Notes under the pieces: model-generated
Told to the model about the DNA's origin: nothing
The model's input: only the letters and a program-made list of their open reading frames with translations
The model's database searches: none
Part shown: positions 3,393-57,734 of the stretch, one piece after another
How the letters are laid out: every line of letters begins with the position of its first letter
Numbering within the stretch: the stretch's first letter is position 1
Assembly (NCBI GenBank): GCA_036835125.1
Contig: DAITMO010000001.1
Coordinates: forward strand, 191,508-255,507
Direction: 5' to 3'
DNA length: 64,000 nt
Origin: Patescibacteria group bacterium
Lineage (GTDB): Bacteria > Patescibacteriota > Microgenomatia > UBA8517
Program-made: the position numbers and the translations under genes

Positions 3393-3401
3393 AATAAAAT
3401 A

Positions 3402-3779
3402 ATGAATAGATATAAAAAAATACTGGGAATAGACTACGGCAGAAGTAAAATCGGACTAGCAATTTCCGATGGGCCACTAGCAGAACCATTCAAAGTAATT
3501 AGATACAAAAACAAAGAATCAGTAGTTGAAGAAATTAAAAAAATAATTGAATATGAAAATATTGAAAAAGTGGTAGTTGGAGTATCAGAAGGAGAAATGG
3601 GAGAAGAAAGTAAAAACTTTGCAGAAAATTTCAATGCAGAAACTTTTGATGAAACTTTAACCTCACAAGATGCACAGTTTCTTTCCCAGGAAGCAGGAAT
3701 AGGAAGAAAAAAAAGAAAAGAAATGGAAGATGCATATGCAGCAACAATAATGCTTCAAAATTATTTAGATAGTAAATAA
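3402..3779 (+). CDS. ruvX: Holliday-junction resolvase-like YqgF/RuvX.
   Basis: N-terminus KKILGIDYGRSKIGLAISDG is the classic RuvX/YqgF RNase H-fold signature. 125 aa. Confidence 0.8.
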   Translation: MNRYKKILGIDYGRSKIGLAISDGPLAEPFKVIRYKNKESVVEEIKKIIEYENIEKVVVGVSEGEMGEESKNFAENFNAETFDETLTSQDAQFLSQEAGIGRKKRKEMEDAYAATIMLQNYLDSK

Positions 3780-3795
3780 TCATACCCCATAATAC

Positions 3796-3830
3796 TTGAC
3801 ATTTAGGTTTAAATATAGTAGTATTATTCA
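3796..3830 (+). promoter_or_regulatory. Candidate sigma70-like promoter (TTGACA ... TAGTAT) for the downstream small gene.
   Basis: cttgacatttaggtttaaatatagtagtatt: TTGACA at 3796-3801, ~17 nt spacer, TAGTAT -10-like hexamer. Confidence 0.3.
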
Positions 3831-3917
3831 TACTTAAATAGCCTATATTGCATGGATATATTAAGTAAAATTTAGTACATTAACAAAGAGAGATTAATTC
3901 ATTCCAACTGCTTGAAA

Positions 3918-3958
3918 GCAGCACTCTGGGCATATTTAAACTGTGCTCGGAGTGCTGC
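3918..3958 (+). promoter_or_regulatory. 5'-UTR stem-loop (9-bp perfect stem GCAGCACTC / GAGTGCTGC, 23-nt loop) ~25 nt upstream of the ATG at 3984.
   Basis: Inverted repeat read directly: gcagcactc tgggcatatttaaactgtgctcg gagtgctgc. Confidence 0.35.
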
Positions 3959-3983
3959 TCATTCAAGTAGCAAAGGAGAAAAA

Positions 3984-4352
3984 ATGAATTCGGAATCGAA
4001 ACATTTATTTTATAGAGACCACGGGTTTGTTGTGGTCTCAGATAAGTCGGGTTGGGTACATCAACTAAGTCCATACTCCTATATGAGTGTGGAATTCCCC
4101 CCTGAGATTGTTAGTATAATTGGTAGTGGGGTGTCAGCGAATGAATTACCTTATTATGAGGCGATTATTTTTCTTAAAGGGGAAAAAGAAGCACTTCGGT
4201 GCATAGTTTCTTTTGAAAAGCTTCCCCCAGATGATGAAACAAAAAAAAGAATTTTAGCTGGACGCAAGTTAGGTTTTTTTTCGATCCCTTCTAGATTTGT
4301 AGGTTTTACGGACACTTCTGTATTGGAGGTGTCAAAAATGATTTTTGAATAG
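3984..4352 (+). CDS. Hypothetical protein (122 aa).
   Basis: ATG preceded by AAAGGAGAAAAA Shine-Dalgarno. The track's longer ORF from 3912 would read through the UTR hairpin. No recognised motif. Confidence 0.45.
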   Translation: MNSESKHLFYRDHGFVVVSDKSGWVHQLSPYSYMSVEFPPEIVSIIGSGVSANELPYYEAIIFLKGEKEALRCIVSFEKLPPDDETKKRILAGRKLGFFSIPSRFVGFTDTSVLEVSKMIFE

Positions 4353-27126: not shown

Positions 27127-27618
27127 ATGGCATACAACAGAGGACAAAGACAAGATTATCAAGGACCTCCAAAAGAGTTTGAGGAAACAGTGGTTCAGAT
27201 AAATAGAATTAGCAAGAAAACAAAAGGTGGAAACCAGATTAGATTCTCAGCTCTTGTTGTCGTTGGAGACAGAAAAGGAAAAGTTGGTGTTGGAATTGCT
27301 AAAGCAACAGACGTTAGAAATGCTATTAGAAAAGCCATAGAAGCAGCAAAAAGAAATCTTGTAATTGTTCCTTTGGTTGGAACAACAATTCCATATTCAG
27401 TTGATCAAAAGTTTTCTGCAGCAAAAATACTATTGAAACCTGCTCCTCCGGGATCTGGTATTATTGCAGGTGGACCTATGAGAGTAGTTTTGGAAGCTGC
27501 AGGAGTTAGGGACGCAGTTGGAAAAATCTTGGGAACAAAGAATAAAATTTCAAATGTTTATGCAACACTAAAAGCCCTTGAAACAATATCAGGAATGGTT
27601 GAGATTAAAAGAAAATAA
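27127..27618 (+). CDS. rpsE: 30S ribosomal protein S5.
   Basis: ...RFSALVVVGDRKGKVGVGIAKATDVRNAIRKA...GSGIIAGGPMRVVLEAAGV... Confidence 0.95.
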   Translation: MAYNRGQRQDYQGPPKEFEETVVQINRISKKTKGGNQIRFSALVVVGDRKGKVGVGIAKATDVRNAIRKAIEAAKRNLVIVPLVGTTIPYSVDQKFSAAKILLKPAPPGSGIIAGGPMRVVLEAAGVRDAVGKILGTKNKISNVYATLKALETISGMVEIKRK

Positions 27619-27644
27619 ATAGTTTTTAAATTAAAATAATTACA

Positions 27645-27926
27645 ATGACAAATTTACCTAAAGTAGTAGCAAAAAGTAAAAAGAGAGTTGGACGCGGAAT
27701 GGGTAGTGGCAAAGGATCTCATACTTCTAGTCGTGGACAAAAAGGACAAAAGAGTAGGGGTCACATTGGAGTTCTTTTTGAAGGAATGAAGATGAGAAAG
27801 AGTTTCTTAAAAAGACTTCCTCTTATTCGTGGAAAAGGAAAGTTCCATGCTAAAAAAACCAGACGTGAGAAATATGCTGCTTTCAAAAGTAGGAAAGCTG
27901 CTCCAAAAGATACTGCTAAAAAATAA
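27645..27926 (+). CDS. rplO: 50S ribosomal protein L15, N-terminal portion only (93 aa); the ORF stops right after an A6 run.
   Basis: KRVGRGMGSGKGSHTSSRGQKGQKSRG...KRLPLIRGKGKFHAKK...FKSRKAAP aligns with the L15 N-half (E. coli ...RRLPKFGFTSRKAA...). Stop TAA 27924-27926 immediately follows aaaaaa at 27918-27923. Confidence 0.8.
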   Translation: MTNLPKVVAKSKKRVGRGMGSGKGSHTSSRGQKGQKSRGHIGVLFEGMKMRKSFLKRLPLIRGKGKFHAKKTRREKYAAFKSRKAAPKDTAKK

Positions 27927-27928
27927 GA

Positions 27929-28210
27929 ATGGAACAAGGACTAAAGATTGATCAGAATCCAGACTTTGATCAGTGGAAAGCCGATAATGAAAGACTTACA
28001 TTAGCAGGACTTCAAAATGATGACGACGAAATAATTGATGCAGTAAAAGCTAGATGTATCAGTAGGTTTGGTAAATCTGCTGGTAGTCTATACTTTAGAG
28101 GATTGATAGCAACTTTCCCCGAAAGACACAAAGATCTTTTTCCAGAAATTTATGATCCAGAGACTGGATTAATGCACGGAGAGGTTTTGGATTCGGTTGC
28201 AAATCCTTAA
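27929..28210 (+). CDS. rplO: Probable continuation of rplO in the -1 frame (L15 C-terminal portion, diverged). Otherwise an acidic 93-aa hypothetical protein.
   Basis: Adding one A to the A6 run fuses the frames (...TAKKIRMEQGLKID...). ...ERLTLAGLQ... and ...AVKARCISRFGKSAGS... resemble the L15 C-terminal ...LKAAGLI... and ...VKAHAFSKSA... segments. Similarity is weak. Confidence 0.4.
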   Translation: MEQGLKIDQNPDFDQWKADNERLTLAGLQNDDDEIIDAVKARCISRFGKSAGSLYFRGLIATFPERHKDLFPEIYDPETGLMHGEVLDSVANP

Positions 28211-28247
28211 TTACTTGGTTTAACTCTTCTTATTTTTAGTGTAGGAT

Positions 28248-28595
28248 TTGGTTATGGTTCAAAAGTTTCCCCACAACAAACTCATTCGAGACAATATTCC
28301 TGAAGTAATTGAAAAAGCTGGTGGAAAGTATGAGACAAAAGTTTTAAATGATGATGAACTGGATGTTGAACTTAGGAAAAAGCTTTTAGAAGAAACAAAT
28401 GAAATTTTAGAGTCCTCCGATGAACATTTACCAGAGGAACTTGCAGATGCTCTTGAAGTGATAGAATCGTTAGCTGAAACTCATGGGTTGAAACTCTCAG
28501 ATATTCAAAAGATTCAGGAGGAGAAAAGGGGTAAAAGGGGAGGATTTAAAAAGAAATTGTTTTTAATTTGGTCAACACAACCTTCTGGAAAATAA
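28248..28595 (+). CDS. MazG-like / all-alpha NTP pyrophosphohydrolase family protein (115 aa).
   Basis: FPHNKLIRDNIPEVIEKAGGK...EETNEILESSDEHLPEELADALEVIESLAETHGL...KRGKRGGFKKKLFL matches the small dimeric MazG/PRA-PH-like NTP-PPase signature (KLVRDKIPE...EE[LV]xD[VA]Le...RGGF). Confidence 0.55.
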   Translation: MVMVQKFPHNKLIRDNIPEVIEKAGGKYETKVLNDDELDVELRKKLLEETNEILESSDEHLPEELADALEVIESLAETHGLKLSDIQKIQEEKRGKRGGFKKKLFLIWSTQPSGK

Positions 28596-29053
28596 AATGT
28601 TTATGTAAAAAAAACTTGGGGCTACCAATGATGTTTCAATTTGATAGCCCCAATGTGTTTGTTGTTCGGCTTTTGAAAGCGTTACTTTAGCCGATATTTC
28701 ATGCGCTGTTTCATGAACCAAATTTTGACATCGATTTCCTGATAAGCAGAACGAAACCAATTCGTAATTTGATTGAGTGTGATCCGTAAAAGGATCAGGA
28801 TGGCCTTTAGGCTTGCATTTGCCTTCAGGATTCTTCCCGTCTTGGTCACACCACATCCGTCGGAACACATCAAAAGTGTCCCGTCCGTGCAGAGAGCGGA
28901 ATATCCGGCGGTTTTGAGAACGATTAGGGTTCTCTCATCGTCGGACTCTGGTTCTCCGCAGCCTGGTTTCAAAGTAATTTCATCGCCTTTTTTTAAGTCG
29001 GCAATGATATACGCACCAGGGTCGACCATACTGCCATATCCACAACAACACAT
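28572..29053 (-). pseudogene. Cys-rich HExxH (zinc-metallopeptidase-like) gene split over two overlapping frames; probably a frameshifted remnant. Local GC is clearly higher than the surroundings.
   Basis: Frame A from ATG 29053 has the strong SD AGGAGGTGA and reads MCCCGYGSMVDPGAYIIADLKKGDEITLKPGCGEPESDDERTLIVLKTAGYSALCTDGTLLMCSDGCGV. It degenerates after ~70 aa. Frame B (28868 downwards) reads ...CDQDGKNPEGKCKPKGHPDPF...CLSGNRCQNLVHETAHEISAKV (HExxH). The tail of frame B runs through the 28616-28653 hairpin. Confidence 0.45.
28616..28653. terminator. Inverted repeat TTGGGGCTA / TAGCCCCAA (9-bp stem, 20-nt loop) between the MazG-like gene and the convergent HExxH gene remnant.
   Basis: cttggggctaccaatgatgtttcaatttgatagccccaatg read directly, preceded by aaaaaaaa. 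Confidence 0.4.
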
Positions 29054-29161
29054 AACTCACCTCCTGGAATATTAGAGAACGAAGGCATATTCTACCCTGT
29101 AGTATGAATAATTTCAAGTTTTCTGCATAGTATAAGCATATTATTGTGATAGAATTCAGAT

Positions 29162-29728
29162 ATGTTGGAATTTTTTGGGATAACTTCAGGGATACTTGCG
29201 ATTGTTGCTGTAGTCCCATACATTCGGGATATTCTAAAAAAGACAACAAGACCTGAAAGGGCAAGTTGGCTTATTTGGACAGTGCTTGGTAGTATTGCTT
29301 TCTTTTCTCAACTTGCTAAAGGAGCAACAAACTCTTTATGGATGACAGGGTTAAGTACTCTATGTGTTTTGACTGTGTTTTTACTTTCTTTAAAACATGG
29401 AGAAGGAGGCCTTATAAAAAGAGATATTATAGCTTTAGTCTTTGCTTTTGTTGGTTTGGTATTATGGTTTTTTACAAAAGACGCAACAATTGCTCTTTTA
29501 ATTGTAATTGCAGTTGATTGTTCAGGGTCAATTCTTACAATCACAAAATCATACAAAGATCCTGAAAGTGAAACAATGAGTACTTGGATATTGGCAAGCA
29601 TTTCTGGTTTGTTTGGTACTCTATCGGTTGGTGTATTTAATTGGATTCTTCTTATATACCCACTTTATATTTTGTTTGCAAATTTTGCTGTTACATTGGC
29701 AATTGTATTGGGGAAAAGAGCTAAGTAA
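29162..29728 (+). CDS. Integral membrane protein with ~6 TM helices (188 aa); possibly a small PnuC-like solute or nucleoside transporter, unconfirmed.
   Basis: Six hydrophobic segments (GILAIVAVVPYI, WLIWTVLGSIAFF, LSTLCVLTVFLLSL, IIALVFAFVGLVLWFF, IALLIVIAVD, ILLIYPLYILFANFAVTLAIVL). Confidence 0.5.
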   Translation: MLEFFGITSGILAIVAVVPYIRDILKKTTRPERASWLIWTVLGSIAFFSQLAKGATNSLWMTGLSTLCVLTVFLLSLKHGEGGLIKRDIIALVFAFVGLVLWFFTKDATIALLIVIAVDCSGSILTITKSYKDPESETMSTWILASISGLFGTLSVGVFNWILLIYPLYILFANFAVTLAIVLGKRAK

Positions 29729-29780
29729 CAATTTTTATTCAATAAAATTTTTTAGAGTTTGATTGTGTTAAACTCCAATT

Positions 29781-30182
29781 ATGAAAAAGAAAGTATACCT
29801 TGCAGGACAATCTAATGAGTATGAGAAAAACTGGAAAGAAAAGTTTAAAAAGATTTCAGGATTTGATTTCTATGATTGGGAATTTGATTCTGACCAAAGT
29901 TCTCCTGATACATATTTCCCTGAAGATTTAACTGGAATTAAAAATACAAAATATATGGTTGCAAATCCTGGGGTTGCACCTTCTGAAGGAACATGGATAG
30001 AGATTGGATATTTCTATGCTATGAATACTAAAAAGCCTGGAGACTTTTGTAATAAATTAATAATTATTTGGAAGAAAGACAGAAAGCCTGTTTGGTCAAT
30101 AGATTTTGTTAAAAAAACTGGGTATGTGGTTTCTTCCATTCCTGCTGCAATTAAAAAATTAAGGGAGATTTCTGGACAGTGA
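29781..30182 (+). CDS. Nucleoside 2-deoxyribosyltransferase-like (NDT / Rcl-like Rossmann) protein (133 aa).
   Basis: N-terminal KVYLAGQ and the block PSEGTWIEIGYFYAM match the NDT-family KIYLAGP and D-x-G-T-x-x-E-x-G-[YF]-A catalytic-Glu signature. Confidence 0.5.
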   Translation: MKKKVYLAGQSNEYEKNWKEKFKKISGFDFYDWEFDSDQSSPDTYFPEDLTGIKNTKYMVANPGVAPSEGTWIEIGYFYAMNTKKPGDFCNKLIIIWKKDRKPVWSIDFVKKTGYVVSSIPAAIKKLREISGQ

Positions 30183-30206
30183 CATATGTTGTGATACAAT
30201 TCGGCT

Positions 30207-30770
30207 ATGGTAGAAACGAATGTTTTTGAAGGTAGACTTGCCACACTTACAAAAGTTTTAAAAGAGATTCCCGAAGTTAAATATATAGGTGACCCTATTT
30301 TAAGAATAGAAACAGAAGAGGCAACTTTGGAGGAAGGAGTCGAAATTGGGGAAAAACTTGGTAAAGTTCTTCTGAAATACAGAGAAATTGCAGGATATGG
30401 CAGAGGGTTTGCCGCTCCTCAAATTGGAATTGGAAAATCTGTTTTTACAACATTTGTTGATGACAAGATTCAGATTTTTATCAATCCTAAAATTACTAAA
30501 ACTTCTGAAACAAAAAATTACTACAAAGAACTCTGTCTTAGTTCTGGAATATTATCGGCAGACGTTGCACGGCCTGAATGGATAGAAATGGAATGGATGG
30601 ATATGGAAGGTAAAATGCATAAAGAAAGATTCGATGGGTTTTTGGCAAGACTCTATCAACATGAAGAGGGACACCTTAGAGGAATTGTTAATATAGATAT
30701 CTGTGAAGATGAAGGTTTGGAAATTTGTACGTTTGATCCACTTAAAGAAACATTAAGGTCTTCAAGATAG
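30207..30770 (+). CDS. def: Peptide deformylase.
   Basis: All three PDF motifs: GRGFAAPQIGIG (motif I), ELCLSSG (EGCLS-like), QHEEGHLRG (HExxH). Confidence 0.75.
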   Translation: MVETNVFEGRLATLTKVLKEIPEVKYIGDPILRIETEEATLEEGVEIGEKLGKVLLKYREIAGYGRGFAAPQIGIGKSVFTTFVDDKIQIFINPKITKTSETKNYYKELCLSSGILSADVARPEWIEMEWMDMEGKMHKERFDGFLARLYQHEEGHLRGIVNIDICEDEGLEICTFDPLKETLRSSR

Positions 30771-30811
30771 AAATTGCTACATTCGAAATTTGGTTTTCAA
30801 GATGATAGTAT

Positions 30812-31495
30812 ATGAGAATGGATACAAAAACACATTGGGACAAAAGTCATCAAAAACATCCTGATAAAAGGGAACCTTCAAATTATGCTATAGATAAAGA
30901 AAGATCTTTTCCGAGGAGTTCTATGGTTTGCGACTTGGGTGGAGGAGATGGTGCGGATAGTTTATATTTTCTAAAACAGGGGCATAATGTTTTCCACTGT
31001 GATATTTCTCCAATTGCTGTAGAAAAAGCTAGAAGAAAAACTGATGAGGCAGGATTTTCAAAAAACTTTTCAACGGCTGTTGTTGATTTGAATAAAGACA
31101 AGATTCCAAAATCTGACAACTTTTTTGATATTGTTTATTCAAGACTCTCCTTACATTATTTTGATCAAGACAGAACAAGAGAGATATTGGCAGATGTTAA
31201 AAGAGTTTTGAAACCTGGAGGGGTAGCATTTATTGCAGTTAAATCACCTGATGACAAAAATGAAATGGAGTTCTTAGAAAAAAATAATGAAAAAATTGCA
31301 GAAGGACTTTACAGAGAAGATTCGGTATTGAAGTCCAGGTACACAAAACAACAATATGAAACTATTTTGAAGAATGCTGGTGTTGATAATTATGAAATAA
31401 ATGATTATGAGGAGACTTTTGGAGAGAGTAAAATATATGTAAAGTCTGGTGCAGACAAACTTCTTTATTTGGAAATAACAATCCACAAGATTTGA
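30812..31495 (+). CDS. Class I SAM-dependent methyltransferase.
   Basis: Motif I VCDLGGGDGADS; post-II VLKPGGVAFIAV. Confidence 0.7.
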   Translation: MRMDTKTHWDKSHQKHPDKREPSNYAIDKERSFPRSSMVCDLGGGDGADSLYFLKQGHNVFHCDISPIAVEKARRKTDEAGFSKNFSTAVVDLNKDKIPKSDNFFDIVYSRLSLHYFDQDRTREILADVKRVLKPGGVAFIAVKSPDDKNEMEFLEKNNEKIAEGLYREDSVLKSRYTKQQYETILKNAGVDNYEINDYEETFGESKIYVKSGADKLLYLEITIHKI

Positions 31496-31528
31496 CACTT
31501 TCGAAATCGTTGGTGATATCATGTTTAT

Positions 31529-32170
31529 ATGACTACTTTTAAAGGAGTAGTAAAAGCAAGAATAATTGATGCTCGTTTTGCAACTTCAGGAAAGGTTAGT
31601 GTTGTTAAAAAGTTTACAGGAGATACTGTTAAGAAGGGAGATTTATTGTCTTCTTTAGAAAGAAAGACTGCTCAGGCTACACTTGATAGGGAGCTTGCCG
31701 ATTTTGAAAGGGTAAGGGCAGACTTTGAAATATTTAATCAGAAGAATCCAAATCCTACAGAGGCAATAGATAAATATTTAAAAACAGAAAAACAGGCAAC
31801 ACTAAATGCTGCTGTTAAAAGTGTGGAAATGGCAAAGGCTGGGGTGGACGCTTGTGATCTATTTTCTCCAGTGGATGGAATAGTAATAGATGATAGTAGT
31901 GTTGTGGCAGGATTAAATATTACTCCTGCTAGTTCTCCTTTTAAAATAATTGATACCAGTTCCTATTTTGTTGAAGTAGAAATTGGGGAGAAAGATATTA
32001 AAAATTTTAAAGAAGAAAAAGAGGTAAAAGTAAAAATAACAAGTTTGGGAATAGAACTAAAGGGAAAGATGGGAAAGGTACAGAGTGATGGGAAAAGGTT
32101 GTGTGTAAAAATTAAGACATCGGATTCTCTAGACGCCCCAGTGGGACTAAGTGTAACGATCAAATTTTAA
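31529..32170 (+). CDS. Biotin-lipoyl-like / HlyD-like barrel-sandwich domain protein with no cognate pump nearby.
   Basis: GKVSVVKKFTGDTVKKGDLLSSLE (lipoyl-like hairpin), a coiled-coil segment, then beta-rich C-terminus. No signal peptide or TM. Confidence 0.4.
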   Translation: MTTFKGVVKARIIDARFATSGKVSVVKKFTGDTVKKGDLLSSLERKTAQATLDRELADFERVRADFEIFNQKNPNPTEAIDKYLKTEKQATLNAAVKSVEMAKAGVDACDLFSPVDGIVIDDSSVVAGLNITPASSPFKIIDTSSYFVEVEIGEKDIKNFKEEKEVKVKITSLGIELKGKMGKVQSDGKRLCVKIKTSDSLDAPVGLSVTIKF

Positions 32171-32173
32171 GAA

Positions 32174-32566
32174 TCACCGCCCTTGTGTTTCGGGTTGTTT
32201 GGACTCAAATACATACCCTTCATGAATTTTGTAACCATTAACTTGAGTATTCTCTAGTTTTACATTAGACCCGTCTTGCACCCTTATACTCGCAGTTATT
32301 AATTGAACCAAATGTTCGTCTGGTTGAAATATTCCCAGTCTGGCTATTGTTGATATTTCTTCAGAGTTTAAATTCTTTTTTATTATTCCAGCAACGTAAT
32401 CAAAACTTTCTCTTGGATTATCTCTTGAAATCCATGGTGCTGAGGCAATAACAGACCACTTGTCTATATATTCATCCATTTTGAGAACCATAAAAAGATA
32501 AAAGTCACCTTTGTCACTTTTTATTTCATTAAAAATATTTCTAAATTTGTCGATTAAATTTTCCAT
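32174..32566 (-). CDS. Hypothetical protein (130 aa), translationally coupled downstream of the HEPN gene; candidate cognate partner.
   Basis: Its ATG (32566-32564) lies 1 nt after the upstream gene's last base. MENLIDKFRNIFNEIKSDKGDFYLFMVLKMDEY... has no recognised motif. Confidence 0.45.
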   Translation of the reverse strand: MENLIDKFRNIFNEIKSDKGDFYLFMVLKMDEYIDKWSVIASAPWISRDNPRESFDYVAGIIKKNLNSEEISTIARLGIFQPDEHLVQLITASIRVQDGSNVKLENTQVNGYKIHEGYVFESKQPETQGR

Positions 32567-32567
32567 A

Positions 32568-32990
32568 TCACCATTTATGTTTGACCCACTCTAAAAATCC
32601 ACTTGTCTTGTCTTCAAGGGCAGCAAATTTGTCTTGGATTGCCGTTGCTGTATATATATTCATATTATATCTTATTTCAGGTTTCCAATCCTTTGTTAAT
32701 ACAGACCAGCTATTAAAAAGACTAGGGTTTTTAACAAGGTCTATCTCTGTTGAATAACCAGAAAGTAGTAACAACCTATCAAACTCATGGGTTGCGAAAA
32801 CGTTTTGAAACTTTCCAGTGTCTGGGTATTCGTTGATTCGTAATTTACGACAAATTACAGCTTTTAATGAACACTCAACAACATAACCCAATAGGTATCC
32901 GGCGGTATCGTTGTCACCGGCTTGAAACAATATTTTAGCAGCTTTTAACTTGGCTTTTGCAGCTGTCTTAAGACTCGTTCGATTTAACAC
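32568..32990 (-). CDS. HEPN-domain protein (140 aa; predicted RNase-type toxin or abortive-infection module).
   Basis: AKAKLKAAKILFQAGDNDTAGYLLGYVVECSLKAVICRKL ... FATHEFDRLLLLSGY ... matches the HEPN layout (helix with E-K-x-LKA, then T-H-[DE]-[LF]-x-x-L). Apparent GTG start with no SD. Confidence 0.5.
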   Translation of the reverse strand: MLNRTSLKTAAKAKLKAAKILFQAGDNDTAGYLLGYVVECSLKAVICRKLRINEYPDTGKFQNVFATHEFDRLLLLSGYSTEIDLVKNPSLFNSWSVLTKDWKPEIRYNMNIYTATAIQDKFAALEDKTSGFLEWVKHKW

Positions 32991-33073
32991 AGTAATGCAA
33001 TTATATAACTATTGTAAAGATAATGTTTATAAAAGTTGGTATCCACAAACACTTACTGTGATACTATGAATAT

Positions 33074-33772
33074 ATGGCCAAATCTTCAAAGAAAAGTAAC
33101 AAGGTTAAAAAATTTAAAACATCTAAACTTTCTTTTAAAAAAGCTGTAGTTGCTATTGGTGCTATTGGGATAATTGCAGGAAGTGTTCCTGTTGTTAAAA
33201 GGGTTATTGATCCGAGTGAATTGGTTACTGAAGTGATTGATGGGGATACGTTTAGGATTGGGAATAGACAAACTATTAGATTCTATTCTGTTGATGCTCC
33301 TGAGCTTGGTAATTGTTATGGGGAGGAGGCAAAAGAAGCATTAACTAAAAAGATATTGGGTAAAAAGGTAATAATAAAATCTCCTAGAACTGATTACTAC
33401 AAAAGAGTACAAGCATATGTGTATGTAGATGGGGAATTTGTAAACGAATATATGGTTAAAAATGGGTTTGCGATGGAACATGGGGAGGGAACACCTGAAA
33501 CAGATATTGTTAAAGAGGCTAATACTTTTGCAAAAGAAAATAAGTTGGGAATATATTCTGAGAAGTGTTCTCCCTTAGTTTCTGAAAATAAAAACTGTGT
33601 AATAAAAGGACAGATTCCATATGATTATGGTCCCGAAAAGAAAGTATATTTACTACCAGGGTGTCGGAATTATGAACAAACAAAGGTTGAGAGATTCCGT
33701 GGGGAAGATTGGTTCTGTAGTGAGAAGGAAGCAAAAGATGTAGGCTTCACTAAATATGAATACTGTCCATAA
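33074..33772 (+). CDS. Membrane-anchored thermonuclease (SNase-like) with a C-terminal Cys-rich extension.
   Basis: N-terminal TM AVVAIGAIGIIAGSV. SNase core VIDGDTFRIGNRQTIRFYSVDAPE ... EYMVKNGFA. C-terminus carries six Cys (CSPLV...NCVIKG...PGCRNY...WFCSEKE...YEYCP). Confidence 0.75.
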   Translation: MAKSSKKSNKVKKFKTSKLSFKKAVVAIGAIGIIAGSVPVVKRVIDPSELVTEVIDGDTFRIGNRQTIRFYSVDAPELGNCYGEEAKEALTKKILGKKVIIKSPRTDYYKRVQAYVYVDGEFVNEYMVKNGFAMEHGEGTPETDIVKEANTFAKENKLGIYSEKCSPLVSENKNCVIKGQIPYDYGPEKKVYLLPGCRNYEQTKVERFRGEDWFCSEKEAKDVGFTKYEYCP

Positions 33773-33808
33773 GTTTGCTTCTTATTTTTTTGATATACTA
33801 AAGGTCAT

Positions 33809-34411
33809 ATGAAAACACAAGTTGTTGTAATCCATGGTGGGGATGCTTTTGAGAAATATGAAGATTATTTAGAAAACCTTCAGACAAAAGAAGTTTCTTT
33901 AGAGAAAGTTCGTTCAATTGGATGGAAAGCAAATTTAGGAAAAGATCTTGGTGAAGATTTTGATGTGTTACTTCTCAAAATGCCCAATGGACAAAATGCT
34001 CGTTATAATGAATGGAAAATATGGTTTGAAAGATTTATTCCACTTTTTAATGAGGAGATTATATTAGTTGGGCATTCTCTTGGCGCAATCTTTTTAATTA
34101 AATATTTTTCAGAAAATGTTTATCCAAAGAAAATAAAAGCTACTATTTTGGTTGGGGCTCCATATAATACTTTGGAATTTCATCCGCTTGTAGATTTTAC
34201 AATTACAACACCACTTAATGGTTTTATTAAACAATCAGGAGAAACTGTTTTCTATCATAGTAAAGATGACAAAAATGTTCCTTTTGAAAACATGGAAAGA
34301 TACAAAGAAAAACTACCAAATGCAGTTTTTAATGTTTTTGAAGATAGAGGACATTTTAATGATGAATCTTTTCCTGAGATTGTTGAATTGATTAAAACGT
34401 TTGCTTCTTAA
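33809..34411 (+). CDS. Alpha/beta serine hydrolase (YdeN/RBBP9-like esterase family).
   Basis: GHSLG nucleophile elbow (LVGHSLGAIF). ~200 aa with downstream D and H (EDRGHF). Confidence 0.65.
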   Translation: MKTQVVVIHGGDAFEKYEDYLENLQTKEVSLEKVRSIGWKANLGKDLGEDFDVLLLKMPNGQNARYNEWKIWFERFIPLFNEEIILVGHSLGAIFLIKYFSENVYPKKIKATILVGAPYNTLEFHPLVDFTITTPLNGFIKQSGETVFYHSKDDKNVPFENMERYKEKLPNAVFNVFEDRGHFNDESFPEIVELIKTFAS

Positions 34412-34435
34412 ATATTTTTAAATTAGAATTGGGAT

Positions 34436-35089
34436 ATGAAATTACTTTTAACATCAGCAGGACTTTCAAACAAAACAATTTCAAAAGCACTAGAAAAGTT
34501 GGTTGGAAAACCTGCAAATAAAACAAAGATTGTTTTTGTTCCAACAGCTGCAAATGTTGAAGATGGTATTAAAGATTGGCTTATAAAAGATTTATGTAAT
34601 CTCCAAAATCTGGGGTTTGCGATAGATATTGTTGATATTTCTGCTGTTGATAAAAATGTGTGGTTACCAAGAATAAAAACAGCTGATGTAATTTTCTTTG
34701 GTGGTGGAAATACTTTTTATTTAATGTCTTGGCTTAGAAAAAGTGGATTGGACGAAGTTTTACCAGAACTTTTAAAAACAAGAGTTTATGTAGGAATAAG
34801 TGCAGGAAGTATGGTGGCAACCAAAAATTTGAGAATGAGTACTTCACAGAAATCTTATGCAGAAAAAGTCTTTCCTCTTAAGAATGATAAAGGTCTTGGT
34901 TTTGTAGACTTTCATGTAAGACCCCATCTTAATTCAAAATATTTTCCAAAGCTACGTACTAAGTTTATTAAAGAAATTGCTAAAGATATTCCAGAACCAG
35001 TTTATGCAATAGATGACAATACAGCAATTGTTATAGATGGTAAAAATATAAATGTTATTTCAGAGGGAAAATGGGTTAGATTTAGTTAA
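34436..35089 (+). CDS. Peptidase E / S51-family (class I glutamine-amidotransferase-like) dipeptidase.
   Basis: FFGGGNTFYLM and GISAGSMV are the S51 signature blocks. Confidence 0.7.
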   Translation: MKLLLTSAGLSNKTISKALEKLVGKPANKTKIVFVPTAANVEDGIKDWLIKDLCNLQNLGFAIDIVDISAVDKNVWLPRIKTADVIFFGGGNTFYLMSWLRKSGLDEVLPELLKTRVYVGISAGSMVATKNLRMSTSQKSYAEKVFPLKNDKGLGFVDFHVRPHLNSKYFPKLRTKFIKEIAKDIPEPVYAIDDNTAIVIDGKNINVISEGKWVRFS

Positions 35090-35416
35090 ATGAGTAAACT
35101 AAAAATAGTTGTATTTGTTCCAAAAACACATACGGATATTGTGAGAAAGACTATTGGTGATGCTGGTGGTGGAATTATTGGAAATTACAACTATTGTAGT
35201 TATTCAGTAGATGGTGTTGGAAGATTTATTCCAGCTGATGGGGCAAATCCTACAATTGGGGAAGTTGGAAAACCTGAGGAAGTTGTTGAGGAAAGAATTG
35301 AATTTGTTTGTGACAGGGAAAAGGCAAAAGAAGTTATTCTTGCCATGAAGAAAGTACATCCATATGAAGAAGTTGCTTTTGATATTTATCCTCTGATTTC
35401 TGAAGACGAATTATAA
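35090..35416 (+). CDS. Small PII/CutA-like fold protein (108 aa); function unknown.
   Basis: C-terminal ...KKVHPYEEVAFDIYPL resembles the CutA ...HPYE.PE...LPI ending. Weak. Confidence 0.3.
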   Translation: MSKLKIVVFVPKTHTDIVRKTIGDAGGGIIGNYNYCSYSVDGVGRFIPADGANPTIGEVGKPEEVVEERIEFVCDREKAKEVILAMKKVHPYEEVAFDIYPLISEDEL

Positions 35417-35836
35417 ATGGAAGAATTTATTAGAAGTGTTGCGATAGTTGTTTTTACTGATGATAAAGATGTTGTTGTCCAGGAAAGAGGAGCAGTTTCC
35501 AAGGTTGGAGAAAAATATGGATTTTGGGGAGGGAAAATAGAGGTTGGCGAGACTCCAGAAGAAACTATTAAAAGGGAAATAAAGGAAGAAATGGGTTTTG
35601 AATTAAAAAATTTCTCTTATTTAGGCAGTTTTCCATATGAAGTAAAAGAGGAGTGTCAATGGAAAGGTGGAAAAATTAATCAGGAAGTTTTTATTTCTCC
35701 AATTAGTGAAATTCCTAAAGATGTAAAAATATCTGAAGGAAAAGGACTTATGAAAATGCCGATTGAGGAAGTCAGGAAAGGTATTGGTTTCCCTATTGGC
35801 AGTACTTACTTTATTGAACCAATTAAGTTTGTCTGA
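35417..35836 (+). CDS. NUDIX hydrolase.
   Basis: Nudix box GGKIEVGETPEETIKREIKEEMG (GX5EX7REUXEEXGU). Confidence 0.75.
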   Translation: MEEFIRSVAIVVFTDDKDVVVQERGAVSKVGEKYGFWGGKIEVGETPEETIKREIKEEMGFELKNFSYLGSFPYEVKEECQWKGGKINQEVFISPISEIPKDVKISEGKGLMKMPIEEVRKGIGFPIGSTYFIEPIKFV

Positions 35837-35843
35837 TTTATAC

Positions 35844-36476
35844 TCAGGATTGATTTAATAACTCTTTAATTCTTGGAATTGCTTTTTGGAGGGCTTTTTC
35901 TCTGTGGTTTAGTTTTTCTCCTTTTTCCTCAGCCTTTAGATGATGTTGTTCTCCTAAAAGCATATTCCATTCTGTTACAAAAAATAATGATTCAAAGGGA
36001 AAGCCATCAACTCTTATGTTACTTGGTTTTTCTAAAATTATACCTCTAAGAATTCCATCGAAAGTTTCTATTGTTCCATTAGGTTGTCCAAGAGCTAAGA
36101 CTGTTCTAAATTGTGCCCCTCTTTTTTCCAATGGAATACCTTTCATCTTTTCCAAACAATAATCAATAATCTCCTGGTCAGTCATTTTTGTTTTTCCATT
36201 TCTCCACCTTCTAACATGGATTCCAGGTTCTCCTCCTAAAGCATCAATCTCAAGTCCCGTATCATCAGCCAAAATCAGTTTATTATCAATGGCTTCCCAA
36301 AAACCTTCTACTTTTAAGGTGGCGTTTTCTTCTAATGTTTTTCCTGTTTCAGGAATATCTAGTTCTATACCTAAATCTTTTGGGCAGAAAACTTTTACTC
36401 CATTGAAATTAAGTAGTTTGGAAATTTCAATTACTTTTCCTGGGTTATTCGTGGCATACAAAAGCTCTTTTGACAT
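35844..36476 (-). CDS. rdgB: Non-canonical purine NTP pyrophosphatase (dITP/XTP-ase, Ham1/RdgB).
   Basis: LLYATNNPGKVIEI..., ...ADDTGLEIDALGGEPGIHVRRW..., ...FESLFFV... are the RdgB signature blocks. Confidence 0.85.
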   Translation of the reverse strand: MSKELLYATNNPGKVIEISKLLNFNGVKVFCPKDLGIELDIPETGKTLEENATLKVEGFWEAIDNKLILADDTGLEIDALGGEPGIHVRRWRNGKTKMTDQEIIDYCLEKMKGIPLEKRGAQFRTVLALGQPNGTIETFDGILRGIILEKPSNIRVDGFPFESLFFVTEWNMLLGEQHHLKAEEKGEKLNHREKALQKAIPRIKELLNQS

Positions 36477-36526
36477 AAGGCGACATTAACATTAATAATC
36501 ATTGTTTTCAATGATATACTCCAATT

Positions 36527-37105
36527 ATGGATAAAGTTGATCAGGATATTGAAGCAAGAATCAAAATAGGAGAAATGAAAAAAGTTGAAGAAATATTAGA
36601 CACAACTCCATATTTAGGTTCCAGCCCATCTAAAGAATATAAATCTATAATATTCGGGAATACAGGTTTTCAAATCCGTTTTGACTCTGAGGGAAATACG
36701 TTTGACTTTATGCCAGAAGGCAAGGATCATATAAAGACGAACGATCCAGCATCGGAAAACAATCGATCAAAATATGCATCTATTTTAGGATCATCATTGT
36801 TTGGACTACATGTGTTATTAAATGATCAGAAAAAACTGTTGGAATTCGGAATAGACGGTTCAAGAATAACTAGTGTTTATGCACTTACAAACGAAAGACT
36901 TATAGATGCTGTTGTTAATTTATTTTCTCGTAGTAACATACCTGATTTGGCTACCAGTAATCCTGAGAAAACTTTTGTAAACATCAATCTCCAAGGCTTT
37001 AAGGAACTTGAAGAAGAGGACTCTCTGATTAAATACTTGAAACGACTTTCGGAAAGGACGAAAGATACAACTGTTACCTATGACAAGTTTGTTCGATGGA
37101 GATAG
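36527..37105 (+). CDS. Hypothetical protein (192 aa).
   Basis: Clean ORF with no recognised motif. Last gene of the accessory block before secY. Confidence 0.4.
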   Translation: MDKVDQDIEARIKIGEMKKVEEILDTTPYLGSSPSKEYKSIIFGNTGFQIRFDSEGNTFDFMPEGKDHIKTNDPASENNRSKYASILGSSLFGLHVLLNDQKKLLEFGIDGSRITSVYALTNERLIDAVVNLFSRSNIPDLATSNPEKTFVNINLQGFKELEEEDSLIKYLKRLSERTKDTTVTYDKFVRWR

Positions 37106-37162
37106 CTGAATATTAATTAAAACTATTTTTAGCCTCCAATTTGGGTTATAATCCATTTATCA

Positions 37163-38449
37163 ATGCTTAAAAACATTACACAGTTTTTTATTAGGGCCTG
37201 GAAAACTCCATCTGTCAGGAAAAAGCTTATTATCACAGGTATCATTCTTGTGGTTTTTAGGCTTGCTGCTCACATTCCTGCAGCTGGTATTGATAGAACA
37301 ACCTTGCAAGCATTGTTTTTAGGAAGTCCACTTTTATCTTTGCTTGATGTGTTTTCAGGTGGAACTATGGCTAATTTTTCTATTCTTGCACTGGGCCTTA
37401 ATCCATACATTAATGCTTCTATCGTTTTCCAACTTTTAGGGTATGTAGTTCCTTCAATTGGAGAACTTCAAAAGGAGGGAGAATATGGCCAAGAGAAGTT
37501 GAATCAGTATACACGTCTTTTGACTATTCCTTTAGCTGCAGTACAAGCATTTGGGATGTATGCCCTTCTTAAGGGGCAGAATGTTATAACAAGTCTTTCA
37601 CCTATGGCTATAGTAACACTGGTGATTACAATGACGGCAGGTACTATTTTTGCAGTGTGGTTGGGAGAGCTAATTACAGAATATGGATTCAAACAAGGAG
37701 TTTCCATTCTTATTTTTACAGGAATTATTGCAAGACTTCCTGTAATTTTTCAGCAATCAGCTAGCATTTTCCAAAGTCAGGATATTTTTAAGATTATTAT
37801 TCTTTTGGTAGCAATAGTTTTGATTATTGGTGCAGTTGTCTTTGTTGGTGAGGCAACTCGGAATATTCCAATTCATTATGCAAAAAGAAGAACTGAATCA
37901 GGTCTTGCCGCATCCTCATATTTACCTTTGAGGTTAAATCAAGCAGGAGTCATCCCAATAATCTTTGCGGTTTCTTTAGTTCTCATGCCTTCTATGATTG
38001 GACAGTTTTTAAGTGGGGTAGGCAATGAAAAAATAGCATCAATCGCAAGTAGTATTGCGACAAATTTCAATTCCCAAACAGTTCTTTATAATGTCATTTA
38101 CTTTTTCCTTGTTTTTGGGTTTACATATTTTTATACAGCAGTTGTATTTAATCCTGAAAAGATTTCTGAAGATTTACAAAAAGGAGGAGGTTTTATTCCA
38201 GGTATAAGGCCAGGAAAGGAAACAGAGAAGTATCTCTCCCACGTTCTTTCAAGAATAACTGTGGTTGGAGGGGCTTTTTTGGGTCTTGTTGCAGTAATGC
38301 CGTCCCTGTTTACTAATTTTGTTGGATCTTCCAATATGGCAATTGGAGGAACAAGTATTCTGATTGTTGTGTCTGTTGTCTTGGAAGTAATTAGAGAGAT
38401 GGAAGGCGAACTTGTAATGGAGAGGTATGACAGATTCATTAGGAATTAA
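37163..38449 (+). CDS. secY: Preprotein translocase subunit SecY.
   Basis: 10-TM profile; ...LGLNPYINASIVFQLL... Confidence 0.95.
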   Translation: MLKNITQFFIRAWKTPSVRKKLIITGIILVVFRLAAHIPAAGIDRTTLQALFLGSPLLSLLDVFSGGTMANFSILALGLNPYINASIVFQLLGYVVPSIGELQKEGEYGQEKLNQYTRLLTIPLAAVQAFGMYALLKGQNVITSLSPMAIVTLVITMTAGTIFAVWLGELITEYGFKQGVSILIFTGIIARLPVIFQQSASIFQSQDIFKIIILLVAIVLIIGAVVFVGEATRNIPIHYAKRRTESGLAASSYLPLRLNQAGVIPIIFAVSLVLMPSMIGQFLSGVGNEKIASIASSIATNFNSQTVLYNVIYFFLVFGFTYFYTAVVFNPEKISEDLQKGGGFIPGIRPGKETEKYLSHVLSRITVVGGAFLGLVAVMPSLFTNFVGSSNMAIGGTSILIVVSVVLEVIREMEGELVMERYDRFIRN

Positions 38450-44127: not shown

Positions 44128-44201
44128 CGGGGTGTAGTTCACCGGTAGAATAGGCGCATGGGGTGCGTCTGAACTGAGTTCAATTCTCAGCACCCCGACC
44201 A
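44128..44201 (+). tRNA. tRNA-Pro (anticodon GGG), CCA encoded.
   Basis: Hand-folded cloverleaf: acceptor CGGGGTG/CACCCCG (7 bp, C1:G72 as in bacterial tRNA-Pro), D stem GTTC/GAAT, anticodon stem GGCGC/GCGTC with loop AT-GGG-GT, 4-nt variable loop, T arm CTGAG-TTCAATT-CTCAG, discriminator A, CCA. Confidence 0.75.
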
Positions 44202-52501: not shown

Positions 52502-52530
52502 AAAAAATCCCGCAATTGCGGGATTTTTGT
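52502..52530 (-). terminator. Rho-independent terminator (perfect palindrome TCCCGCAATTGCGGGA flanked by A/T runs) immediately 3' of rnpB; bidirectional in form.
   Basis: caaaaaatcccgcaattgcgggatttttg read directly. Confidence 0.6.
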
Positions 52531-52850
52531 ACTCTGGAGATTAGTAAGCCAGGTTCTGTTTCTCGATAACCATCCATCTAAGCCCTCGAACCTTTGGACT
52601 CGGGAAAGCATCCTCAAGCGTCCATTTCGGAGGTTGCAGTTGATAAGGGTTGCCGCTTTTCACTCGTTTTTTTCTACCTTTAGGGTAAAAAAATCGACAT
52701 AGTCTCTGTGGTCCTATCTGGCCTATAAATTAAACTTGCGTTTTTTCTATAGTCTCTGATTTTCATCAGATATCATGCTTTCTACTGCCTGGACTTTCCT
52801 CCCACATCTTTTTTAGAGATAGGGCGATTATCCTTTCTCCAGAGTGAGGC
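52529..52850 (-). ncRNA. rnpB: RNase P RNA (bacterial type, reduced, ~320 nt) on the minus strand.
   Basis: Minus-strand reading contains GGGAGGAAAGTCCAGGC (P4 5' strand; consensus GAGGAAAGTCCGGGC) ~45 nt from the 5' end and ACAGAACCTGGCTTA (P4 3' strand; consensus ACAGAACCCGGCTTA) near the 3' end. 5' ACTCTGGAGA and 3' TCTCCAGAGT pair as P1. Terminator follows. Local GC is higher than the surroundings. Confidence 0.65.
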
Positions 52851-57149: not shown

Positions 57150-57734
57150 ATGGTAAACCTATCTGACATTATTACTTCAAAAGTGAGAATTAAAATTTTG
57201 GAGCTATTTTTTTCCAATCTGAAGGAAGTTTACCATGTCAGAGGAATTGTTCGTGAAACTTCTGAGGAGATTAATGCTGTAAGACGTGAGCTTACTAAAA
57301 TGGAAAAAGATGGTATTCTCAAAAAGGAACCCCGTGGGAATAGAATTTATTACTCTGTTAGGCCAGAATATCCCTTCTTTGGTGATTTGGTTTCAATGGT
57401 TGCAAAAACCACAGGTTTAGGAAAAGTAATAAATGAAAATAAGAATAAAATTGGAAGAATCTCTTTTGTTATGTTTTCAGGAAAATTTGTTAGGTATAAA
57501 GAAAGAAAAAGAGATGATGATGTAGATATTTTAGTAGTTGGAGAAGTTGTTCTTCCTGAGCTCGCATCAATAATTAGAGCAGAAGAGACAAAACGTGATA
57601 TGGAGATTAACTACACAGCAATGAGTAGGGAAGAATATGATTTTAGAAAGAAAAGACGTGATCCATTCCTCTTGGGGATTCTTTCTGGAAGCCGTGCTAT
57701 GATTATAGGGGATGAGGAAGACCTCGTCGGATAA
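57150..57734 (+). CDS. Winged-helix DNA-binding domain fused to a minimal nucleotidyltransferase-like domain; putative regulator.
   Basis: wHTH ...RIKILELFFSN...VRGIVRETSEEINAVRRELTKMEKDGIL...; NTase-like ...FVMFSGKFVRYKERKRDDDVDILVVGE... Confidence 0.45.
   Translation: MVNLSDIITSKVRIKILELFFSNLKEVYHVRGIVRETSEEINAVRRELTKMEKDGILKKEPRGNRIYYSVRPEYPFFGDLVSMVAKTTGLGKVINENKNKIGRISFVMFSGKFVRYKERKRDDDVDILVVGEVVLPELASIIRAEETKRDMEINYTAMSREEYDFRKKRRDPFLLGILSGSRAMIIGDEEDLVG

Follow-up and report, generated by a model that had tools for sequence, protein, structure and literature searches.

HEPN RNases act as central effectors in toxin-antitoxin, CRISPR, and abortive-infection systems, and how each of them is restrained is the key mechanistic question. 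The locus described here lies in a 64,000-nucleotide stretch of DNA from a Patescibacteria group (CPR) bacterium, hereafter the window, and raises this question for a pair of small genes: what kind of module do a HEPN gene and the gene that abuts it form, and does the second product control the first? The original prediction described two same-strand open reading frames (ORFs) of 140 and 130 amino acids (aa) separated by a single nucleotide. Coordinates, sizes, and gap are as it gave them, with the correction that both genes lie on the minus strand. The features of the locus are as follows.

32568..32990, minus strand: gene 1, HEPN protein of 140 aa, single-domain, PF05168/HEPN-T type; GTG start, stop codon TGA at 32568-32570.
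32174..32566, minus strand: gene 2, partner protein of 130 aa; ATG start; alpha/beta protein of an unnamed family.
32564..32570, minus strand: stop-start junction TGA-T-ATG, with base 32567 as the 1-nt spacer.
33000..33029, minus strand: promoter-like site TAAACA-18 nt-TATAAT, 10/12 matches.

Judging by their numerous homologues, both ORFs are real genes rather than chance reading frames. Searches recovered 31 homologues of the HEPN protein at E<=1e-33, and the partner family comprises 64 homologues by word-indexed search and 987 representative clusters (50% identity) at E<=1e-3, or 290 at E<=1e-10, by exhaustive search. The GTG start of the HEPN gene occupies the same alignment column as the ATG, GTG, or TTG starts of its homologues and has no SD-like purine run upstream, as had been surmised from the window alone. 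Likewise, no well-spaced Shine-Dalgarno sequence precedes the partner ATG, where the only candidate is a GGTGA 1 nt upstream. The 1-nt-spaced junction implies translational coupling of the partner to the HEPN gene, so that both proteins are probably synthesised together. Further upstream, the -10 hexamer of the promoter-like site ends 9 nt before the HEPN GTG; the count of such sites in the window region is not above shuffled expectation. In a comparison across loci, 12 of 20 have a -10-like box whose end falls 3-12 nt ahead of the HEPN start, compared with 31% among control ORFs (p=0.02 by Fisher's test, for loci that are not independent), which weakly suggests that the HEPN-partner transcript may be leaderless or near-leaderless.

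The identification of the 140-aa protein as HEPN, originally made from peptide strings that are indeed found in it, is supported. The Pfam match itself is borderline: against PF05168 the window protein scores 21.8 bits (E=2.3e-4) with a gathering cut-off of 22, and only residues 7-50 align. An Acinetobacter homologue passes the threshold with 26.8 bits over positions 8-107 of the 117 in the Pfam HEPN profile, and four close homologues carry precomputed PF05168 matches. The AlphaFold2 model is all helical (mean pLDDT 90.2, pTM 0.85), and Foldseek ranks 1-8 against the PDB are all HEPN structures (probability up to 1.00, TMq 0.45-0.59), the top entries being 1wol, 1ufb, 4nqf, 2hsb, 2q00, 1o3u, and 3o10. 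Model and matches together describe the all-alpha, up-down helical bundle of the HEPN fold. The protein also matches phrog_5737, a phage protein family in PHROGs, over its full length (E=1.8e-20). By sequence and predicted structure, gene 1 is a classical HEPN-fold protein of the PF05168/HEPN-T type.

The Rx4-6H catalytic motif, which the original prediction proposed to look for in alignments of homologues, is absent from them. R107 is kept in 12 of 13 diverse members of the HEPN clade, none of which has a histidine at +4 to +6 of this position, and in the close clade the +6 residue is a tyrosine (Y113). Upstream of R107, H68 is invariant in the clade; together with E39, K43, R107, and Y108, which are likewise invariant or nearly so across phyla, it forms a set of candidate active-site residues. 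The missing canonical histidine in itself counts against a toxin-antitoxin system of the binding type. We know of no demonstration of RNase activity for the AF0298-like HEPN-T subtype. Proteins of the AF0298 type lack the motif histidine and carry a conserved upstream histidine, and an alternative active site has been proposed for them (PMC3710099); the H68 and R107 arrangement matches that alternative site.

The association of the two genes extends beyond the window. Profile detection places a member of the partner family directly downstream of the HEPN gene and on the same strand in 20 of 21 loci, that is, the retrieved loci with sequence extending past the HEPN gene, which come from CPR bacteria, high-GC bacteria, and plasmids. 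With linkage at this frequency, the pairing is evidently not due to chance. The exception is a Rhizobium plasmid locus, where a downstream ORF of 189 aa overlaps by 34 nt and resembles the family by eye only. Spacing varies from a gap of a few nucleotides (1 nt in the window) to an overlap of 7 or 22 nt, and the HEPN gene is first in every locus examined, as had been noted for the window. Two small genes read in the same direction, with frames that overlap or abut as they do here, are a generic mark of type II-like toxin-antitoxin modules.

A second such mark, patchy distribution in variable contexts with carriage on mobile elements, is also present. Patterns for the close subfamily match in 3 of 185,579 species genomes, and the genes flanking the pair vary by genome (folD/argG, uvrB/pyk, murJ/groEL, squalene synthase/uridine kinase). 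All contigs with an identical neighbour gene carry the pair, so that they do not inform on its gain or loss between strains, and the longest recorded contig that bears it is ~778 kb. Distant pairs occur on Acinetobacter, Deinococcus, and Rhizobium plasmids, in a phage-like contig, and in Klebsiella phage Kp4864-1. Others sit among the accessory genes of the nin region in lambdoid E. coli prophages, which 190 of the 5426 complete genomes of this species carry with the pair (3.5%), O157:H7 and O26 included; the HEPN version there is WP_001038620 and its partner WP_000520499. One O157:H7 genome, among ~60 rows inspected, combines a frameshifted HEPN gene, possibly a sequencing error, with an intact partner; this is too few natural knockouts to serve as evidence. 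Pattern scans of IMG/VR with the HEPN and partner alignments returned no close relative. At the CPR loci, the flanks are housekeeping rather than defence genes. The window neighbourhood is similarly housekeeping or metabolic, the pair does not sit in a defence island, and the composition profile of the window has no GC anomaly that would mark recent transfer, nor is the pair itself atypical. Since the pair is sparse and patchy, has unrelated neighbours, and travels on plasmids and in prophages, it is not the known, conserved housekeeping duo that the original prediction had named as one of its points of failure. A motif search of the window and the loci found no clear minimal nucleotidyltransferase (MNT) gene; a wHTH-NTase-like ORF at 57150-57731 had no PDB match.

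What, then, is the partner? Neither the single protein nor any of the 64 family members has a credible match in Pfam, NCBIfam, PADLOC, PHROGs, or PDB sequences, in line with the initial view that it holds no recognisable domain. Members are mostly bare proteins of 115-135 aa with no extra domain. The AlphaFold2 model (pLDDT 89.7) is a compact alpha/beta domain with the element order a1-b1-b2-a2-b3-a3-b4-b5. Its best Foldseek matches in the PDB come from two HEPN-MNT systems, whose MNT antitoxin chains it resembles weakly (E 4e-3, TMq 0.42-0.45; overall TM 0.35-0.45, E>=4e-3). Generic alpha/beta sandwiches (BolA, KH, and MamM CTD) score nearby, and there is no meaningful match among BFVD viral structures. 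The predicted fold is not clearly new, its nearest relatives being, weakly, the MNT antitoxins. The suggestion of a novel HEPN partner type stands insofar as the protein has no family assignment, and is weakened insofar as its fold is not clearly a new one.

At the sequence level, a canonical MNT can be rejected, and the original prediction had already seen no obvious MNT in it, given the missing GS-x9-D-x-D motif. The hG[GS] and [DE]x[DE] nucleotidyltransferase motifs are absent from the partner sequence and the family alignment, NTP_transf_2, Polbeta, or other NTase Pfam matches number 0 of 64 members, and hhalign gives a probability of 1.9% against a small profile built from MNT chains in the PDB. 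Likewise, no HTH, RHH, or AbrB family matches the window protein or any of the 64 members. Most type II antitoxins carry a DNA-binding domain, and toxin-first gene order is a minority arrangement; the lack of such a domain in the partner and the HEPN-first order speak against a toxin-antitoxin reading. The most conserved residues of the partner are D31, D35, W37, S42, R76, and G111, of which only W37 and G111 are invariant among the 64 members. Acidic residues at 31, 35, and 83/84 are conserved in the CPR and high-GC subfamilies and are not retained in the enterobacterial, Acinetobacter, or Rhizobium versions; where conserved, the cluster of D31, D35, and D83/E84 could be an active site, which would count against a non-enzymatic partner. 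Finally, the partner domain is also found at the N-terminus of fusion proteins, joined to DUF3800, which has a predicted RNase H-like nuclease fold, to repeats, or to another copy of itself. The C-terminal extensions of the longer proteins are NPxxN-type heptad repeats or tandem duplications, in which no Pfam domain was found. Such fusions fit a putative docking domain.

Set beside known systems, the pair shares with type VII HepT-MntA (Shewanella SO_3166/3165, Aphanizomenon, Legionella) the layout of two small adjacent genes, one of them HEPN-fold. The predicted fold of the partner is nearest to the MNT chains 7ae2_B, 7ae9, and 5yep_A/6m6w, and in our reading both follow the order helix, strand, short connector, strand, helix, strand, helix. 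In canonical MNT-HEPN modules, the antitoxin gene lies upstream of a DUF86-family HEPN gene, and MntA controls the HEPN toxin by AMPylation. Here, in contrast, the HEPN gene is first, its product is PF05168/HEPN-T-like with no DUF86 match, and Rx4H is missing; the partner, unlike MntA, has no GS/DxD motifs, no NTase Pfam match, an hhalign value of 1.9%, and an extra C-terminal beta-hairpin. Because the MntA motifs, an NTase Pfam match, and MNT profile similarity are all absent, AMPylation by the partner is unlikely. The HEPN-T proteins AF0298, TM0613, ST0689, and TT1696 (PF05168) share the fold of gene 1, provide its best structural matches, and resemble it in the E..K of helix 2, the H-D-L of helix 3, and the R-Y of helix 4. 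They are typically stand-alone, MNT-paired, or MNT-fused (PMC3710099). The present clade differs in being paired with an unnamed non-MNT family, and its sequence similarity to them is at the Pfam threshold.

RnlA-RnlB and LsoA-LsoB, which also have toxin-first gene order, resemble the pair in that downstream of the HEPN toxin gene lies a small gene (~120-130 aa) whose product, a binding antitoxin in those two systems, has no DNA-binding domain. RnlA and LsoA are, unlike gene 1, large multi-domain proteins with the canonical Rx4-6H motif, and RnlB gave no sequence match and no Foldseek match among the top 50 PDB matches of the partner. Both systems are carried by mobile elements and act against phages (PMC8266594). 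Component A of PADLOC PDC-M28 is also matched, weakly, by the HEPN protein and each of its distant relatives (E 2e-7 to 7e-9; 2e-7 and 29 bits for the window protein). The matches reach no more than 26-34 bits and cover the model in part, and the partners match no PADLOC model, the PDC-M28 components included. Similarly, the E. coli and Klebsiella relatives recall HepS (Gifsy-1) and Tha (S. aureus prophages) as small HEPN proteins in a temperate-phage accessory region. HepS is a single-protein system with the canonical R100-x4-H105 motif (PMC13043305) and was rejected as the same system, the HEPN here being paired and without the motif histidine. Literature searches on PDC-M28, the E. coli accessions, HEPN in Patescibacteria, and NetFlax yielded no description of the pair, and PDC-M28 is named nowhere in the library searched.

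We propose that the two genes form a mobile module of the toxin-antitoxin or abortive-infection type, composed of a HEPN effector and a non-enzymatic binding partner, and we consider the chances of this being right or wrong about evenly balanced. The HEPN fold, the tight linkage and the coupling of the genes, the patchy mobile distribution, and the unassigned partner family are observations, from which we infer the function. By analogy with other HEPN proteins, the HEPN protein would dimerise and cleave RNA, with catalysis presumably by H68 (helix 3), R107-Y108 (helix 4), and E39/K43 in place of the Rx4-6H dyad. The partner would be translated by coupling to the HEPN gene, both products being made together, and its family would be essentially confined to the position directly downstream of this HEPN clade. 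Because it has no enzyme-typical residue set family-wide and lacks the nucleotidyltransferase motifs, the partner most likely holds the HEPN protein in check by direct, stoichiometric, type II-like binding rather than by AMPylation. The RNase would then be set free once the partner is lost or is engaged by a trigger.

Other readings draw on parts of the same evidence. The distant pairs in the lambdoid nin region and a Klebsiella phage, the fusion of the partner domain to DUF3800 and repeat-rich C-terminal regions, and the HEPN matches to phrog_5737 and, weakly, to PADLOC PDC-M28A would all suit a defence complex in which the partner, as sensor or adaptor, docks or senses and recruits the HEPN effector, activates it on phage infection, or connects it with further effectors, giving abortive infection without addiction. 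We regard this as unlikely: partner members are mostly bare 115-135-aa proteins, flanks at the CPR loci are housekeeping, and neither protein matches any validated defence system model. A divergent enzymatic antitoxin, that is, a remodelled NTase-like enzyme that modifies the HEPN protein covalently from a relocated acidic site (D31, D35, D83/E84), is suggested by the MNT antitoxin chains of two HEPN-MNT systems at the top of the Foldseek list and by the acidic 31, 35, and 83/84 common to the CPR and high-GC subfamilies. It is left a slim chance by the hhalign result of 1.9% against the MNT profile, the 0/64 matches to NTP_transf_2 or Polbeta, the loss of the acidic positions in the enterobacterial, Acinetobacter, and Rhizobium versions, and a HEPN protein that belongs to PF05168 and not to the AMPylated DUF86 family.

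Toxicity itself may also be questioned. The HEPN domain of kanamycin nucleotidyltransferase is thought to be a non-catalytic binding subunit, and a non-toxic heterocomplex with a HEPN subunit that binds nucleotide or RNA, in a regulatory or metabolic role, would account for the missing Rx4-6H and for the housekeeping or metabolic neighbourhood in the window; some HEPN domains are, moreover, probably inactive binders. The last point is made in PMC3710099. Such a complex seems quite improbable here, as E39, K43, H68, R107, and Y108 are near-invariant across phyla, unlike in degenerate HEPN domains, and the pair is patchily distributed, sits between variable flanks, and is carried by plasmids and prophages. 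Finally, the polarity could be reversed, with the downstream partner as toxin and the upstream HEPN protein as antitoxin, in keeping with the conserved charged residues of the partner and, as far as gene order goes, with the antitoxin-first order usual in type II operons. We give this very little credence: HEPN is the toxic component in every characterised HEPN toxin-antitoxin system (PMC3710099; PMC7641770), and the frameshifted HEPN gene beside an intact partner in O157:H7, a single case, would be tolerable if HEPN is the toxin.

The proposed module of a HEPN effector and a binding partner also admits a broader version, which we offer tentatively and hold to be doubtful. The partner could be a widespread HEPN-docking domain, possibly a catalytically dead MNT descendant, in which binding has taken the place of AMPylating control and which is able to carry other modules (DUF3800, repeats, or a copy of itself). 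Together with a HEPN-T protein that uses H68 and R107, it would constitute an unrecognised toxin-antitoxin or anti-phage family ranging from CPR bacteria to the prophages of E. coli O157:H7 and O26.

In summary, a HEPN-T clade is coupled to a family of ~1000 clusters (50% identity) that has no Pfam, NCBIfam, PADLOC, or PHROGs name and for which we found no literature, and the pair resembles a toxin-antitoxin or phage-defence module of a variant not yet described. The distant pairs in 3.5% of complete E. coli genomes make the hypothesis directly testable in a standard host. If the partner is a binding inhibitor with an MNT-like fold, it would bridge the enzymatic (type VII) and binding (type II) modes of HEPN control; likewise, a binding inhibitor would provide a test of whether the AF0298-type H/R active site is catalytic. 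For the CPR bacterium itself, the pair is among the few accessory, conflict-type modules that can be recognised in its reduced genome.

The locus considered here consists of two abutting small genes and a promoter-like site upstream of them:

32174-32566, minus strand: partner gene, 130 aa, ATG start
32568-32990, minus strand: HEPN-like gene, 140 aa, GTG start
within 32991-33029, upstream of the HEPN GTG: promoter-like site TAAACA-18-TATAAT, ending 9 nt before the GTG

The original prediction placed both reading frames correctly, and the strand is corrected here to minus for both. A single base lies between the HEPN stop and the partner start (TGA-T-ATG, read along the coding strand), and the sole purine-rich stretch ahead of the partner ATG, GGTGA, lies 1 nt from it. 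This is too near for a normal Shine-Dalgarno (SD) sequence, so the simplest reading is that the partner would be translated by re-initiation coupling to the HEPN gene. The predicted GTG start agrees with the homologues, whose starts (mostly ATG) fall in the same alignment column, and, as also predicted, no SD-like sequence precedes it. At 12 of 20 related loci (60%, versus 31% of control ORFs; p=0.02), the HEPN start codon lies 3-12 nt beyond a -10-like hexamer, in many cases an exact TATAAT; the enrichment is modest, and the loci are not independent and come from AT-rich genomes. The loci with such a hexamer are among the retrieved loci L001-L013 and L035, include an E. coli prophage version and have no SD; a leaderless HEPN transcript, conserved across loci, is possible from this pattern.

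Within a long run of plus-strand genes, the pair alone is on the minus strand, flanked by a convergent HlyD-like gene whose stop is 3 nt away and a divergent SNase-family gene 83 nt away, and its base composition is not atypical. In most bacteria, just rpmD and rplO lie between rpsE and secY. Here, rpsE (S5, about 27127-27618) and secY (about 37163-38449) are separated by about 9.5 kb containing roughly 17 genes (window 27127-38449), including peptide deformylase, a methyltransferase, the HlyD-like protein, the HEPN pair, the SNase, hydrolases, NUDIX, Ham1 and several ORFs without a family; the ORFs directly after S5 and directly before secY have no ribosomal-protein Pfam match. Elsewhere in the window, a 194-aa ORF (57150-57731, plus strand) combines a winged-helix-like N-terminal region with a C-terminal nucleotidyltransferase-motif-like stretch, FVMFSG...DDDVDILVVG, and has no match among PDB sequences. 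The sole Rfam gathering-level matches in the window are a full-length bacterial class A RNase P RNA (52529-52843, minus strand; 108.9 bits) and one tRNA (44128-44198, plus strand).

The 140-aa protein is a member of the HEPN superfamily, as predicted, nearest to HEPN-T/PF05168 and with an AF0298-type variant of the motif. By sequence the match is borderline: Pfam HEPN (PF05168) covers residues 7-50 only (E=2.3e-4, 21.8 bits), 0.2 bits under the gathering score. Four close homologues carry precomputed PF05168 matches, and a distant member of the family, encoded on an Acinetobacter plasmid, exceeds the threshold at 26.8 bits over nearly the whole model. The AlphaFold2 model, built with 26 homologues, is all-helical and confident (pLDDT 90.2, pTM 0.85), and the eight PDB matches that Foldseek ranks highest for it are without exception HEPN structures (ST0689, TT1696, 4nqf, AF0298, SSO P95883, TM0613 and sacsin; probability up to 1.00, TMq 0.45-0.59); on these grounds we consider the predicted fold assignment sound.

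The canonical Rx4-6H motif, proposed as a check on catalysis, is absent from the homologue alignment. R107 is kept in 12 of 13 diverse members, none of which has a histidine at +4 to +6 of it, and E39, K43, H68 and Y108 are invariant among the aligned members. This is the residue pattern of the AF0298-type HEPN-T family, which lacks the motif histidine, retains the basic residue and strongly conserves another histidine on the N-terminal side of the motif, as part of a proposed alternative active site (Anantharaman et al. 2013, PMC3710099). Given the match to this proposed site, catalysis by the protein is plausible.

The 130-aa partner has no recognisable domain, as first noted: neither the single sequence nor 64 collected members match Pfam, NCBIfam, PADLOC, PHROGs or PDB sequences. 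It belongs to a large, unnamed family that goes strictly with this HEPN clade. When 1.84 billion cluster representatives were searched exhaustively by profile, 987 partner clusters were recovered at E<=1e-3 (290 at E<=1e-10), almost all 115-135 aa long. Among the 21 retrieved loci with sequence reaching past the HEPN gene, profiles detect a family member directly 3' of that gene, on the same strand and abutting or overlapping it, in 20: 11 reached via the HEPN protein, seven contigs via five distant partners, and two plasmid loci where the profile matches are weak. L012, whose contig stops shortly past the HEPN gene, falls outside the count, and so does a Rhizobium plasmid whose 189-aa downstream ORF resembles the family by eye only. 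Related loci from the genome collection are candidate-phyla-radiation (CPR; Patescibacteria) metagenome-assembled genomes, which makes it very likely that the window's organism belongs there as well. Between genomes the flanks are unrelated (folD/argG, uvrB/pyk, murJ/groESL, squalene synthase/uridine kinase), and close-subfamily patterns match in only 3 of 185,579 species-representative genomes. This distribution and the unrelated flanks rule out a conserved housekeeping duo, the counter-case named in the original prediction.

The module also resides on mobile elements. With the HEPN protein as query, tblastn detects homologues of 29-36% identity on plasmids of Acinetobacter, Deinococcus and Rhizobium, every one with an overlapping gene directly 3', and the phage family phrog_5737 matches the HEPN protein over its full length (E=1.8e-20). 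A distant pair on a Logan contig (SRR29078159; L021, 1-6381) has phage-like neighbours (an SU10-type adaptor, a tail-protein-like ORF of phrog_17312, an Imm_superinfect protein and an HTH_7 protein), which points to a phage or prophage of an uncultured host as its carrier. Similarly, Klebsiella phage Kp4864-1 encodes a 140-aa HEPN protein and a 134-aa downstream product whose genes overlap by 22 nt. Of 5426 complete E. coli genomes, 190 have one copy of this same pair at 65% DNA identity, O157:H7 and O26 strains included, in lambdoid prophages between the replication genes and ybcN/ninE/rusA/Q, annotated merely as 'HEPN domain-containing protein' and 'hypothetical protein'. The enterobacterial partner matches the window's family weakly (hmmsearch 16 bits; hhalign 25%, E 7.6e-4, 84 collinear columns); its conserved position beside a homologous HEPN gene makes homology probable. 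None of these pairs matches a validated PADLOC defence system, and all the HEPN proteins weakly match PDC-M28A, a component of a PADLOC candidate system.

The partner is modelled by AlphaFold2 (64 sequences, pLDDT 89.7) as a compact alpha/beta domain, a1-b1-b2-a2-b3-a3-b4-b5. Foldseek ranks as its best PDB matches antitoxin chains, confirmed as MNT components, from HEPN-MNT complexes of two different systems: 7ae2_B and 7ae9 E-H (E 4e-3 to 5e-2, with TMq 0.38-0.45 and a probability as high as 0.97 over alignments of up to 142 columns), together with 6m6w_A, 7aer_A and 5yep_A. The likeness is weak, with scores close to those of BolA, KH and MamM-CTD sandwiches. By sequence, nothing ties the partner to MNT, in keeping with the initial reading: the family lacks hG[GS] and DxD motifs and any NTase Pfam match, and its hhalign probability against a small MNT profile is 1.9%. 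C-terminal extensions occur in about a tenth of the listed family members, as NPxxN-type heptad repeats leading into a beta-rich region or as a tandem second copy, and a plasmid relative has a different one:

P0147, P0158, P0183, P0185: N-terminal partner domain, 8-12 tandem heptad repeats of the form (I)NP(V/I)(Y/F/L)N(H/R/P)(T/A/Q), beta-rich C-terminal region without a Pfam match
P0226: tandem duplication of the partner domain
Deinococcus sp. AB2017081 plasmid NZ_CP140099.1 (L017), 2836-4218: 460 aa, downstream of and overlapping a HEPN homologue; partner-like N-terminal region and a DUF3800 domain, for which an RNase H-like nuclease fold is predicted (PMC10910872)

Anatomically, the pair is consistent with a toxin-antitoxin or abortive-infection module: its genes are small and coupled, one product has the fold of a known toxin superfamily, linkage is strict, distribution is patchy, flanks are variable, and the pair occurs on plasmids and in prophages. 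The HEPN protein would be the effector, an RNase using H68 and R107, and the partner a stoichiometric binder holding it inactive, an arrangement to which we give about an even chance. Only W37 and G111 are invariant among the 64 partner members, D31, S42, I74 and R76 are nearly so, and even these drift in the most distant versions, which argues for a binding domain over an enzyme. An acidic cluster (D31, D35, D83/E84) common to the CPR and high-GC subfamilies keeps the enzymatic reading alive, if decidedly improbable. A partner acting as sensor or adaptor within an abortive-infection complex is unlikely, a non-toxic binding complex improbable, and reversed polarity between the two proteins very improbable indeed.

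In its way of working, the module would come closest to HEPN-MNT and RnlAB/LsoAB, yet it belongs to neither: it departs from HEPN-MNT in MNT motif, gene order and DUF86, and has no similarity to RnlA or RnlB. In the literature searched, neither the partner family nor the HEPN-partner pair is described. While the pair is not very surprising to a specialist, its partner family is large and unannotated. The pair can be tested directly in E. coli, with a bearing on the control of HEPN-T proteins and on whether their alternative active site works.
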